The notes under the pieces were generated by a model. That model was not told the origin of the DNA, searched no databases, and saw nothing but the letters and a program-made list of their open reading frames with translations. From the NCBI RefSeq assembly GCF_055900595.2, contig NZ_CM148325.1: a DNA stretch of 64,000 bases. One strand, 5' to 3'. This document shows positions 5,839 through 12,341 of the stretch, piece by piece. The translations under genes were made by a program, and so were the position numbers. Every line of letters begins with the position of its first letter. The first letter of the stretch is position 1.

Positions 5839-6435
5839 TTAATCTGATCTCCGCTGCAACAGTTTCGCCAAATTAATCGACTCGACCAGCTGTGTCCGGT
5901 TGATCCGGGGTGAGTTGAGATCCATCACTTTTTGCCATAGTTCGATGGCTTGCGCGTAATTCGCCTGCATAAACGCATCGGAAGCCAGCAGCATCAGAGC
6001 GGTGATTTCGTTAGAGTCCAGCGCGAGGGCTTTGTCGATCATTGCGCGAGTCTGGGCGGTCATATGCTGGCTGGCCTGGTAATAAAGCACCGTCGCCAGC
6101 GCCGCATACAGTTCAGCGTTCTCACCACGTAGTTGCAACGCCTGACGGTACGCCAGCAGCGAATTGCTGTAATCGTTTTGCCACAGATAATACTCGCCCA
6201 GTAACGCCCATTGTTCGCTGTTTTGTGGATTAGCGCGGATTTTATCCTGCAATGCCTGAAGCTGCGCTTCCGGGGTTTGCTGGCTGGCAAACTGATGTAG
6301 CGGATCGCGCTGACGCTGATACTCCGCACGTACCGCCTGCCATTTTGGGCTTAACAGATAACTGCCGATACAGAGAAATACCATCAATATCGTGAGTGTT
6401 GTCAGCATTTTCACCGGTATTTGAGGCTGTTTCAT
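5839..6435 (-). CDS. nrfG: Formate-dependent nitrite reductase complex TPR protein NrfG (198 aa)
   Basis: ORF 5839-6501 trimmed to ATG 6435 ([11 protein letters not shown]...); overlaps the nrfF stop by 4 nt; TPR-like repeats. Confidence 0.85.
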
Positions 6436-6815
6436 CGCTTCGCCCTTACCCGCCAGAGGATCAGTATCATCAGCAGTAACAACACCACTGGCAGCGCCCA
6501 CAACACCAGCGTCTGACCGGTTAACGGTGGGTTATAGCGAACAAAATCTCCGTAGCGTTCGGTCATCCAGCCAATGATTTCGACTTCACTTTTCCCCTCC
6601 GCCACCATGCTGTAAACCTGATGGCGCATACTGACTGCCACCGGCGCATTGGATTCCAGTAAGTTCTGATTCTGGCACTGCGGGCAGCGTAACTGGCTGG
6701 CAATATTTAACGCCTGTTCCTGTTGTTGCGGATTGGCGAATTGCCAGGTGTCTACAACCTGAGCGCGCGCAAAACAGGTAAATAACAGCAGTAGCGTGAG
6801 AAGCCCTTTATTCAT
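6432..6815 (-). CDS. nrfF: Cytochrome c-type biogenesis protein NrfF (CcmH-like, 127 aa)
   Basis: ATG start at 6815; signal peptide and CPQC motif; position in the nrf operon. Confidence 0.9.
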
Positions 6816-8466
6816 CGCGCTTCCTCCCCCGCCATCCGCTTAACAATGCGCCCGCAATCATCAACAATCCTCCCCCCCAGATCCAGCGCACACCGCGTTG
6901 TACATACAAACGAAAAGCGTAACGATCCGGTCCGGTTTTCTCGCCCATGACCGCATACCAGTCATGGATGCCGTTCCAGCGAATTGACGGTTCCATCATT
7001 TGCTGACGACGTGCTTCGTAAAAACGCCGCTCCGGCGTTAATTCACCAATGCGTTGCTGATGGTCAAACAGCGCCACTATCGCTTTTTCGCTGGTGTAAT
7101 TGCCTTTGGCTTGCAGATCGAGGCGCTCAAAACGGAAGGTGTATCCTGCCAGAGTCACCTGCTGACCCGGCTGTAAATTCAGGCTGATCTCCTGATGGCT
7201 GACGCTTGAAACCACGATCCCCGCGGCAAATAACAGCACACCCGCATGCGCCAGCAGCGCCGGAAGCTGCACGCGTTTGCCAGAGACAAACGTCGCCAGC
7301 ACAATCACCACCAGCATCAACAGACCAAACGGTAACGTCGCGCGGTTAAAATACGGCGCGCCAACGGAGAGGCGTCCCCAGCCCAGCAGGCCGTAAATCA
7401 TCGGATAAAGCGTTCCCACCAGCACTATCAGTAGCACTGCGCAAAACAGCAACAGCGTAGCGAGGATTAACATTTCCCGCGATAACCCCGAAAAACGCAC
7501 CGCCGGGCCACCGTCCCGCGCTCGCCAGCCATACAGAGCCAGAGACGCAAGGCTAATCAGTGCAAACAGGCTGAACAACGGCACGGCGCGGACGTTATCC
7601 AGTGCGAACGCATGAACCGAAACCAGAATGCCAGAACGGACAATTAAGGTGCCCAGCAGCGACAGCATCAGAGTAACTATCGCCAGTAACAGCGACCAGT
7701 GGCGGAAAATCCCCCGCTGGCGTGTCAGGGACAAACTGTGCAGCAGCGCAGTGGCAGAAAGCCAGGGTAATAAAGAGGCGTTTTCCACCGGGTCCCAGAA
7801 CCACCAGCCGCCCCAGCCCAGTTCGCAATAGGCCCACCAGGAACCAAGGATGATCCCCGCCGTTAATGCGCTCCAGCCAGGTAGTGCCCAACGCCAGCAA
7901 ATTCGGGCGTTGACACCATCAAACTCGCCGCGCAGTAGACTCGCCAGCGCCACGCTCGCCGCTACCATCAAACCGCCATAGCCAAGATAAAGCAGCGGTG
8001 GATGAAAGATAAGACCGGGATGTTGCAGCATCGGATTGAGATCGCGACCTTCGATTGCTGGTGGAAATATCCGCACGAAGGGATCGGACCACAGCACCAC
8101 AAACAGTAGCAGTGCGGCGAGCATGAGAGATAAAACGGCTAGCGTCAGCGGAAATAGCGGATCGGTTTGCTGCCGATAATGCCAGGCAAACAGCGCGCTC
8201 CACGCGGAAAGGAGTAGCACCCAAAGTAGCAGCGAACCTTCATGCCCTCCCCACACTGCCGCCAGTTTGAGTTCCCACGACAGCAGGCTGTAGCTATGTT
8301 GGGCGACATAAATGACCGAGAAATCGCTGATGAGAAAACAATACGTCAGTACGCCAAAAGCGATCAGCAGGAGCGCGAACTGTGCCAGAGTGCCGATGCA
8401 AGTGAGTCGCATCATGGCAGGCCAGCGCAACCGCACTCCCGCAAAGGTTGTCAACGGGGTCAACAC
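6808..8466 (-). CDS. nrfE: Heme lyase NrfE (CcmF-like; start uncertain, ORF extends to 8490)
   Basis: Long polytopic membrane ORF 6808-8490 (track start is TTG); I placed the start at an in-frame GTG (8466) to give the roughly 552-aa product I recall; the start is the least certain part. Confidence 0.8.
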   Translation of the reverse strand: MLTPLTTFAGVRLRWPAMMRLTCIGTLAQFALLLIAFGVLTYCFLISDFSVIYVAQHSYSLLSWELKLAAVWGGHEGSLLLWVLLLSAWSALFAWHYRQQTDPLFPLTLAVLSLMLAALLLFVVLWSDPFVRIFPPAIEGRDLNPMLQHPGLIFHPPLLYLGYGGLMVAASVALASLLRGEFDGVNARICWRWALPGWSALTAGIILGSWWAYCELGWGGWWFWDPVENASLLPWLSATALLHSLSLTRQRGIFRHWSLLLAIVTLMLSLLGTLIVRSGILVSVHAFALDNVRAVPLFSLFALISLASLALYGWRARDGGPAVRFSGLSREMLILATLLLFCAVLLIVLVGTLYPMIYGLLGWGRLSVGAPYFNRATLPFGLLMLVVIVLATFVSGKRVQLPALLAHAGVLLFAAGIVVSSVSHQEISLNLQPGQQVTLAGYTFRFERLDLQAKGNYTSEKAIVALFDHQQRIGELTPERRFYEARRQQMMEPSIRWNGIHDWYAVMGEKTGPDRYAFRLYVQRGVRWIWGGGLLMIAGALLSGWRGRKRDE

Positions 8467-8545
8467 GTTGACCCCAAGACTTAACAACAACGCCAGAAAA
8501 CCGACTTCAGGAAGGAATACGTCCAGAAACCACCTCTTTTCTGGC

Positions 8546-10170: not shown

Positions 10171-10733
10171 GGCTGCTCCTTAAGCAACGGAACAGACGCC
10201 GGGTTAAAGTTCGGATTGGTGCGCTGATCGCTGTGGCAATCGACGCAAATCTTAATCCGTCCTTTGTCACTTAACGTCTGCATCGTATCTTGCTGTGGAT
10301 GCAGGGAATGGCAGCTGGCGCACGCCACTTTGGTTACGTGGACATCGTGCGGCCAGAACGCTTTTTGCAACTGTTCCGGCAGATGGCAGGACATACAGAC
10401 GCTGTTCTGCTCTCCAACCTTGTACATCGGCTCGTTAAAGCGCATCACATCTTTCACCCCTTCGCGGTGTTGCGGTGATGGCTGGCCGTGACAGTTGGTG
10501 CAGATGACCGGCAGTTTGTTATTCGGGTTGATAACAGAAGCATGTTTGCCATGCATACCTTCGGTATCTGGTTTATGACAGTCCAGACAGGCGGCATCCG
10601 GGTTACGCTGCTGGGTAACTTCGTAGCGATCACCAGATGCCTGCGCCGCAGGGGTAGCGGTAATTCCGTTCAGGCTCCACAACAGGCCCGACGCCAGCAC
10701 CCCGGCAGTTAATAACGAACGTAATACGCTCAT
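10167..10733 (-). CDS. nrfB: Pentaheme cytochrome c NrfB (188 aa)
   Basis: ORF start trimmed to ATG 10733 (MSVLRSLL...); five CxxCH heme-binding motifs. Confidence 0.9.
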
Positions 10734-10777
10734 ATTCACTCCATTGTGTTTTCCGCCCCTTGCGAGGCGGAACAGGG

Positions 10778-12214
10778 TTATTGGCTTAACAGACCGTTTT
10801 TACGTGCCTGCTCTTCCCACTGCGGGATCACCGTTTTGATAAAGTCCTGCTTCTCAGCCTTGATTTGTTCCATGTTCAGGCCAATGGCCTGCTGGGCTTT
10901 CTCTTTGGTCGAGATATCCGGGATCGGGATTTCATGGGTGATGCCTTTGGTCGCCAGCAGGCGCGCCAGTTTGGTGCGCGCATCCGCCGCTTTATCCATC
11001 GCCGTACCGAGCATCCTCAGACCTTCTTCCGGTGCGTGCATATGAATGCCGTGGGAAGCGATCGCCAGATCCCAACGCCACTGGGCATGACGAATATCGT
11101 CCTGAATGGGCTTCATTTCGGCTTCTGTCGCGCCTGCGTCCAGCGCCGCTTTCGCTTCGAAGTGAGCGTGAACCAGTTGATCTTCAACCTTGATTTTCAG
11201 GTCGTTAATCGACTGCTTACGTTCCGCGACCACTTTTTGCAAGGCAGCTTTGTCCTGGGTATGGCAGTTCGCACAAGTCTGGGCGAAGTTATCAAACGGA
11301 TTACCAATTTTATGGTCGGTGTAGAGTTTGCCTTCGGCGTTCTGCACTTTTGGCATATGGCAGTCGATACAGGTCACGTTGTTTTTACCGTGAATGCCCG
11401 CTGTCCAGGTTTCATATTCCGGGTGCTGCGCTTTCAGCATTGGCGTTTTCGACAGGGAGTTAGTCCAGTCAGAGAAGGCAATTTTGTCGTAATACTGCTC
11501 CATATTTTCGACTTTCATGCCGTCATCCCACGGGAATTTAACGGCTTTGTTTTTGCCATCGAAGTAATACTCCACATGGCACTGACCGCAAACCATCGAT
11601 TGCTGGTCGAAACGTCCGGCTTTCTCAAAAGGTTTACCAATGGCTTCCATCGCACGAGCCGCATACGGACGGGAAAGGGTTAATTCCGGTTTGCCTTTGG
11701 CGAATTCTGGTGAGGCGGTGTTATGACAATCGGCACAACCTAAGTTGTTGACGATTTCCGGGCCGCCACGCGCCCATTTACCATGGAAGTAGCCATCTTC
11801 GCCGTCTTTCTGGATCAGACGCGCCACATCCGGGCTTTTACAACTCCAGCATGCCATCGGTAGCGGACCATCTTCAGCGTTTTTCGGCGCACCGGTACGC
11901 AGGGTTTCACGCACATCGGTCACAGCAAAGGCATGTCCACGCGGCTTGTTGTAATCGCGCGAGAAAGGATACCCCGCCCACAGGATCACCAGCCGTGGAT
12001 CTTCCGCCAGGGCGTCAACACGCTCTGACTGTTCAGAGGTGGCTTTCCAGGAGAGATATTGATCGGGATGCTGCGGGGCAAAGGTTTCATTCTTCGCTTC
12101 CACAGTTACAGGTTTTGCGGGAGCAGCCGTTTGTTCAGCGTGAACAGAAGTGAAAAAGAAAAAAGGAATCAATAAGCTGAAGATACGGCGTGCGTTTATT
12201 TTTATCCTTGTCAT
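10778..12214 (-). CDS. nrfA: Cytochrome c552 nitrite reductase NrfA (478 aa) with lysine-ligated heme motif CWSCK
   Basis: ORF 10778-12247 trimmed to ATG 12214 ([12 protein letters not shown]...); contains CWSCK plus four CxxCH motifs, diagnostic for NrfA. Confidence 0.95.
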
Positions 12215-12341
12215 AGGGGCTTCATCCGAATTGCGCCATTGTTGCAATGGCGGTTTTTATTGTTTTTCACGACAGTAACCGCACCTACACTGTCATGACA
12301 TTGCTCGCCCCTATGTGTAACAAATAACCACACTGTGAATG

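Follow-up and report, generated by a model that had tools for sequence, protein, structure and literature searches.

Where does translation of nrfE begin? This gene encodes a CcmF-type haem lyase and belongs to the nrfABCDEFG operon of Escherichia coli, a textbook system that is intact on the minus strand, at positions 5839–12247, of the stretch of DNA analysed here (contig NZ_CM148325.1 of NCBI RefSeq assembly GCF_055900595.2, 64,000 nucleotides (nt); hereafter, the window). The first-pass annotation of this DNA had called the nrfE start uncertain, and the disagreement is real: four gene models circulate, of 572 amino acids (aa) in the RefSeq pipeline, 552 aa in the curated K-12 reference (NC_000913.3), and 540 or 535 aa from other callers. 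On comparative evidence, nrfE very probably opens at a CTG codon (8524–8526, minus strand), which is also the start used by RefSeq, yielding a protein of 572 aa (6808–8526, minus strand; NF007691, 1160 bits), and not at the TTG at 8490 nor at the K-12 GTG at 8466. That ribosomes actually initiate at this CTG is what we infer from sequence.

The CTG, for which 8526 corresponds to K-12 coordinate 4,291,452, is preceded, 4 nt upstream, by a Shine–Dalgarno (SD) sequence, GAGGTG (8531–8536, minus strand). The duplex of this element with the anti-SD sequence was calculated at −8.3 kcal/mol, compared with −2.2 to −5.4 kcal/mol at every alternative nrfE start. When a 30-nt probe spanning the SD, the CTG and the five codons that follow was compared with 5,421 E. 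coli records, 5,414 carried it unchanged; the common variants of the nrfD–nrfE junction fall outside this core.

The expected N-terminus of the protein is given by its family. NrfE family profiles align from residues 2–5 of the 572-aa form, with positions 1–573 of NF007691 matched from residue 2. We fetched 80 loci encoding relatives by one scan of genome contigs and sorted them by gene context; 6, preceded by nrfC and nrfD, were true nrfE and all others ccmF. Among about 60 CcmF paralogues, 39 begin with ATG-x-P-E-x-G (typically MIPEIGHFALILAL), and most other CcmF genes have a canonical start within a few codons of P-E-x-G. Given this common beginning, P-E-x-G marks the N-terminus of the family. 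The NrfE proteins of the window, K-12 and E. albertii retain the motif as L-P-E-V-G-F-L-A-L-L-L; in their genes, the frame from the in-frame stop upstream to the motif holds no ATG, GTG or TTG, only a CTG five codons before the proline. The same arrangement, with no ATG, GTG or TTG upstream of P-E-x-G and only this CTG, was counted in four NrfE loci; in Escherichia, Salmonella and most Citrobacter, no NTG codon other than the CTG precedes the motif. The N-terminal M-x-P-E-x-G helix of NrfE is therefore present only if translation begins at or before the CTG.

Predicted structure bears on whether a shorter protein could also be made. A search of the PDB with NrfE aligned from residue 49 only and was uninformative on the N-terminus, for which the genomic loci and an AlphaFold2 (AF2) model were used instead. 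Hydropathy analysis found a membrane-grade segment in residues 1–31 that is lost in the 552-aa form, and in the AF2 model residues 5–33 form one helix (predicted local distance difference test (pLDDT) 83–98), with the K-12 start, at residue 21, falling in mid-helix. It is conceivable that the CTG and a downstream codon are both used, giving full-length NrfE and an N-terminally shortened isoform, since several in-frame NTG codons lie downstream and a CTG initiates poorly. None of the downstream starts is kept from genus to genus, however. Judging from hydropathy and the AF2 model, a protein with half of helix 1 missing would probably be inserted wrongly into the membrane, and we regard the use of two starts as unlikely.

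The curated K-12 model, in which nrfE starts from the GTG at 8466 and the upstream 20 codons are an untranslated spacer, has in its favour its curation, a canonical start codon, and modest anti-SD pairing (−5.4 kcal/mol). Against it, the upstream 20 codons show coding-type substitution. The junction was compared across nine taxa after further loci had been added, a modest sampling. Among the 12 variable codons of the extension, 8 vary synonymously only and 4 change the amino acid, whereas the other two frames, each of which has a stop, have 2 and 0 synonymous-only codons; with 26% of single-base changes expected to be synonymous, the binomial p is 0.0035. The 20-codon extension evolves like coding sequence. 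In addition, the GTG is a CTG in Enterobacter sp. BIGb0383 and in a locus of the Citrobacter sedlakii group (L086), a protein started there would lack P-E-x-G and 16 residues at the beginning of helix 1, and the GTG would leave a gap of 79 nt to nrfD with the strong, conserved SD at 8531–8536 unexplained. The GTG thus has a low probability of being the nrfE start.

The start proposed by the open reading frame (ORF) track, the TTG at 8490 (560 aa), or the adjoining TTG at 8487, fares worse. The former is the first ATG, GTG or TTG in the open nrfE frame of E. coli. Both have almost no anti-SD pairing (−3.4 and −3.0 kcal/mol), and both would remove P-E-x-G. The TTG at 8490 is a CTG in E. albertii, Salmonella, C. 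werkmanii and C. sedlakii, that at 8487 is TTA or CTG in several taxa, and all of these changes are synonymous for leucine. A start at either TTG is accordingly very improbable, and the TTG at 8490, like the GTG at 8466, would cut into the first transmembrane helix. With the ATG codons at 8415 and 8412, these TTG and GTG codons were rejected as nrfE starts because their SD pairing is poor, they are not conserved and they would remove the family N-terminus. The first-pass annotation had described several ORF-track starts as non-ATG extensions. This was correct for nrfA, whose real start is the ATG at 12214 (the outer coordinate 12247 is a TTG extension), and for nrfB and nrfG, whose ORF-track starts (GTG at 10739 and GTG at 6501) lie upstream of the true ATG codons; for nrfE it was not, the TTG at 8490 being 12 codons too short instead.

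The nrfD–nrfE junction has been remodelled by indels between genera (window 8527–8545; locus L083, 1493–1500; locus L085, 1501–1509), and CTG GAC GTN at the nrfE start was kept throughout the junctions compared. In Escherichia 19 nt separate the two genes, in Salmonella and most Citrobacter 8 nt, and in C. sedlakii 1 nt; counted from an upstream TTG, the C. sedlakii genes overlap by 8 nt. In Salmonella enterica, C. werkmanii, Citrobacter sp. FP75 and Enterobacter sp. BIGb0383, the junction reads nrfD TAA, GG, an in-frame TGA, one codon (TAT or TTT) and CTG GAC GT. The CTG is the sole near-cognate start available in these four taxa, and since both frames are closed there, neither a longer nrfE ORF nor an NrfD–NrfE frameshift fusion is possible in them. 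The reading that NrfE is made as such a fusion, by frameshift or stop read-through and with no need of its own start, draws on the E. coli nrfE frame being open for 10 codons before the CTG and overlapping the nrfD stop, and we give it next to no credence: it is effectively refuted by the Salmonella and Citrobacter junctions, where, past the nrfD TAA, a TGA one codon ahead of the CTG closes the frame and no single shift joins the two, and a conserved SD precedes the CTG.

The outgroups Pectobacterium and Budvicia start nrfE with ATG. In the C. sedlakii group, the TTG mentioned above lies three codons upstream of the CTG and overlaps the nrfD stop, and in one locus of this group (L086) the CTG is replaced by CCA, a change that would be the relaxation expected once a canonical start exists.

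Several points weigh against initiation at the CTG and against the role in expression that we propose for it below. Since E. coli uses CTG more than any other leucine codon, conservation of the CTG by itself counts for little. The test of synonymous and non-synonymous change rests on only 12 variable codons from related taxa, and the RefSeq 572-aa model is itself homology-driven and so is not independent confirmation. No N-terminal peptide, start-site profiling or mutagenesis for nrfE was found in the searchable literature. The throttle role of the CTG is one that we infer from sequence only, and the 19-nt gap between nrfD and nrfE lies in a range where termination–reinitiation is already much reduced and varies from gene to gene (PMC10666635). 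A literature search on the nrfE start codon and on CTG or CUG starts returned no report for nrfE. The nrf operon is induced anaerobically, and standard aerobic profiling data would miss it. In EcoGene 3.0, the CTG starts given for K-12 are hda and yfjD (verified) and yghF' (predicted), and nrfE is not on this list (PMC3531124); a 2025 review of NrfA maturation makes no mention of the nrfE start (PMC12285233).

What a CTG start would mean for expression depends on how the genes are joined. The first-pass annotation had noted overlaps of 4–8 nt at most junctions, and they are present at four of the six. The nrfB/nrfC, nrfC/nrfD and nrfF/nrfG junctions are 4-nt overlaps (ATGA), nrfE/nrfF is an 8-nt overlap (ATGAATAA), nrfD/nrfE is a 19-nt gap, and nrfA/nrfB is a 44-nt gap with a hairpin. 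Overlaps of −4 and −8 nt belong to classes tied experimentally and statistically to termination–reinitiation coupling, for which the criterion is a stop–start spacing of −8 to about +10 nt, with 11–20 nt being ambiguous (PMC10666635). The four overlaps all lie within this spacing, nrfD/nrfE falls in the ambiguous range in E. coli (+19 nt) and is +8 nt in Salmonella and Citrobacter, and nrfA/nrfB (+44 nt, with the hairpin) is probably uncoupled.

From this gene anatomy, the nrf mRNA would be read in three translational blocks, A, BCD and EFG. nrfA would be translated alone, followed by the stem-loop and the 44-nt spacer; nrfB, nrfC and nrfD would form a block linked by their ATGA overlaps; and the nrfE-F-G block would open at the CTG, 19 nt past the nrfD stop, and be linked by the 8-nt and 4-nt overlaps. 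In reporter assays, CUG initiates at about 1–2% of the level of AUG, with a range of 0.02–3% (10.1101/063800), and initiation factor IF3 discriminates against codons such as CUG (PMC2268962). A weak CTG would thereby hold the coupled NrfEFG lyase far below the level of the enzyme subunits, and as nrfF and nrfG overlap their upstream genes, it would cap the entire lyase module at a low level. Low output of NrfEFG would suit a maturation factor needed in catalytic amounts. The closeness of the CTG to the nrfD stop may aid its initiation through partial termination–reinitiation, which is uncertain in E. coli. On balance, we lean slightly towards the combined view that nrfE is a genuine CTG gene across Escherichia, Salmonella and most Citrobacter and that its start codon acts as a fixed throttle, setting the lyase at about one-hundredth of the reductase subunits made from the same mRNA.

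The hairpin that follows nrfA may contribute to this division. It lies at 10751–10772 (minus strand; TTCCGCCTCG-CAAG-GGGCGGAA), directly 3' of the nrfA stop and inside the nrfA–nrfB spacer, with a folding free energy of −17.8 kcal/mol and no T-run. The structure is kept across six genera, its sequence differs in Pectobacterium and Budvicia, and 5 of its 9 pairs show two-sided (compensatory) changes. It may favour nrfA, and separate it from nrfB–G, as a 3' stabiliser or a partial terminator.

The lyase module consists of nrfE, nrfF (6432–6815, minus strand) and nrfG (5839–6435, minus strand). NrfF is a CcmH-like thiol-redox subunit of 127 aa with an RCPQC motif (TIGR03147, 209 bits against a cut-off of 159; PF03918), and NrfG is a tetratricopeptide repeat (TPR) lyase subunit of the CcmH/CycH type, 198 aa long (NF007692, 398 bits against a cut-off of 306; PF23914). 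The AF2 model of NrfE, built from a 64-sequence alignment, had a predicted template modelling score (pTM) of 0.90 and a mean pLDDT of 87, and in a Foldseek comparison it matched Thermus thermophilus CcmF (6ZMQ) with E = 1e-20 and TM-scores of 0.81/0.78. The WGGWWFWD motif (W238–D245) and H175, H263, H305 and H427 are invariant in the alignment; we take these histidines to be the two periplasmic P-His and the two transmembrane TM-His of CcmF. The claim that the operon carries its own CcmF/CcmH-like lyase is thus borne out, with NrfE a CcmF paralogue of the same fold as 6ZMQ, NrfF CcmH-like and NrfG a TPR subunit. NrfEFG would be a dedicated paralogue of the CcmF/CcmH System I haem lyase that attaches haem to the CXXCK site. 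That such a lyase is needed for this attachment, as the first-pass annotation also stated, is published for K-12 (Eaves 1998, cited in PMC12285233).

In C. werkmanii (locus L004, 4716–4830), a palindromic insertion resembling a repetitive extragenic palindromic (REP) element lies between nrfE and nrfF and is open in the nrfE frame. It destroys the 8-nt nrfE/nrfF overlap seen in E. coli. A 737-aa NrfE–NrfF fusion in this species was considered and rejected, as the ORF merely runs in frame through the insertion. Some database entries carry the name 'NrfEF'.

The enzyme that this module would serve, NrfA, is encoded at 10778–12214 (minus strand) with an ATG start, is 478 aa long, and was identified as the pentahaem cytochrome c552 nitrite reductase (NF008339, 871 bits against a cut-off of 595). 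A motif scan located CWSCK at residues 122–126 (codons at 11837–11851, minus strand), the lysine-ligated active-site haem motif already pointed out in the first-pass annotation, followed by four CxxCH motifs (CADCH, CGQCH, CIDCH and CANCH). Residues 27–478 match the crystallised E. coli protein (PDB 1GU6, 1058 bits), and the whole differs from K-12 NrfA by 1 aa. By these sequence and structural matches, NrfA is identified as the periplasmic ammonia-forming nitrite reductase, with its catalytic haem assigned to CWSCK.

The electron-delivery module NrfBCD is complete, with three adjacent, co-directional genes whose products pass their family cut-offs. NrfB (10167–10733, minus strand; 188 aa; NF008659, 308 bits against 184) is a pentahaem electron-transfer cytochrome with five CxxCH motifs in the scan, and its residues 26–188 match the crystallised E. 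coli protein (PDB 2OZY). NrfC (9499–10170, minus strand; 223 aa; TIGR03149, 417 bits against 378) is a ferredoxin-type subunit with 4x[4Fe-4S] clusters, exported by twin-arginine translocation (Tat), and its N-terminus has the twin-arginine motif SRRQFL. NrfD (8546–9502, minus strand; 318 aa; TIGR03148, 467 bits against 348; PF03916) is the integral-membrane quinol-oxidising subunit. It is established that electrons are supplied to NrfA by NrfB, NrfC and NrfD, and that nitrite is reduced at the lysine-ligated haem (PMC12285233). In the window, the three proteins would likewise pass electrons from the quinol pool to NrfA.

Upstream of nrfA, an FNR-box-like sequence, TTGATTAAAGACAA (12342–12355, minus strand), lies in the promoter region with 2 mismatches to TTGAT-N4-ATCAA; we presume that it has the role at pnrf described for the FNR site. 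It is contained in the ORF of a small protein, ytcB (18 aa, MHLQLIKDNIHSVVICYT; 12311–12367, minus strand), which is present and identical to K-12 b4821. As the box lies inside it, ytcB seemingly sits upstream of the FNR-dependent nrfA transcription start, which puts its source transcript in question. On the plus strand, an intrinsic-terminator-like element at 12234–12262 (CGCCATTGTTGCAATGGCG followed by GTTTTTATTGTTTTT) is antisense to the nrfA 5' leader, and on the nrfA strand its hairpin is just upstream of the nrfA ribosome-binding site. The nrfA–acs intergenic region (12215–12606) differs from K-12 at 1 of 392 nt, against 0.9–4.4% in the flanking nrf coding sequences, which fits either a divergent regulatory region under dense constraint or a tract of local recombination.

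The identity of the operon as a whole is not in doubt. The ORF list for 4500–13500 of the window held seven long minus-strand ORFs between 5839 and 12247; this strand orientation, like the upstream CTG as the likely nrfE start, is absent from the first-pass annotation. With gene coordinates taken from the RefSeq annotation of a 100%-identical genome, all seven genes are divisible by three in length and have zero internal stops or frameshifts, in agreement with the earlier impression by eye. All seven products score above the curated NCBIfam cut-offs for NrfA–G and match the expected Pfam families, so that the complete, co-directional nrfABCDEFG originally claimed stands. The flanking genes are acs on one side and gltP on the other, in the RefSeq identical genome as in K-12.

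The 6,409-nt stretch was found in 5,420 of 5,426 E. coli genomes, with 100% identity to 8 complete genomes and 95–99% identity to 5,412 more. Matches to the nrf operon or to acs of at least 99% identity came from only 8–9 of about 5,420 complete E. coli genomes, with the next best at 98.9%. Given how few genomes reach this level across 5839–14565, the window belongs to an E. coli lineage from which few genomes have been sampled, and nrf is not alone in being divergent. Of 5,427 operon matches in the E. coli genome collection, 4 sit on plasmid-labelled records. An Rfam scan of 4000–13000 at a permissive threshold gave no match within the operon and only REP-like naRNA4 beyond gltP, where two matches (RF02564) lie at 4000–4175, downstream of that gene, one of them above the gathering score (67.8 bits). 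Scans for promoter and terminator consensus sequences gave counts at or below shuffled expectation, with no terminator found after nrfG.

The nrf operon is already known, and nothing here is new to biology in that respect; the CTG start of nrfE is likewise already annotated by RefSeq and so is not new in databases, and we found no paper reporting it. In practice, what is gained is a small correction to the K-12 reference annotation. If nrfE does start at the CTG, the K-12 NrfE model is 20 residues short and without half of the first transmembrane helix, and constructs, deletion designs and structural models based on the 552-aa protein would begin in the middle of that helix. Were the CTG confirmed, the operon would also be a natural example of a start codon setting the ratio of an abundant enzyme to its maturation machinery in one transcript.

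Compared with known systems, the window is closest to the nrfABCDEFG operon of E. coli K-12 (b4070–b4076), with which it shares the seven genes, their order, their neighbours (acs, ytcB and gltP) and the junction geometry. Its coding sequences differ from those of K-12 by 0.9–4.4% in nt and are undisrupted; of the 27 amino-acid substitutions, 13 fall in NrfE. The curated K-12 nrfE model lacks the first 20 codons of the model favoured here. NrfHA systems such as those of Wolinella and Desulfovibrio have a homologous NrfA with a CXXCK haem (PDB 1FS7, 2J7A and 1OAH match the window NrfA). They differ in using the tetrahaem quinol dehydrogenase NrfH, in place of which the window has NrfB, NrfC and NrfD; NrfH models scored far below their cut-off in the profile search of the window's operon products.

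With the CcmF/CcmH System I (6ZMQ), NrfE shares the fold, WGGWWFWD, the invariant histidines and the N-terminal P-E-x-G helix, while NrfF is of the CcmH type and NrfG of the CcmH/CycH TPR type. Unlike a typical CcmF, NrfE is about 80 residues shorter (38–45% identical), is encoded within the reductase operon, and is dedicated to the CXXCK site according to the literature (PMC12285233); its gene has no canonical start codon in the Escherichia, Salmonella and Citrobacter clade.

In this last respect, nrfE resembles hda and yfjD, which have a CTG with a good ribosome-binding site, as at nrfE; yfjD was itself predicted by EcoGene from conservation, by the same reasoning (PMC3531124). Their CTG starts have been confirmed by start-codon mutagenesis, whereas that of nrfE is predicted from comparison. 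If true, nrfE would join hda and yfjD among the very few CTG-initiated genes of E. coli, and it already has what is looked for in such genes, namely a CTG with a ribosome-binding site and no canonical alternative that keeps the conserved N-terminus.

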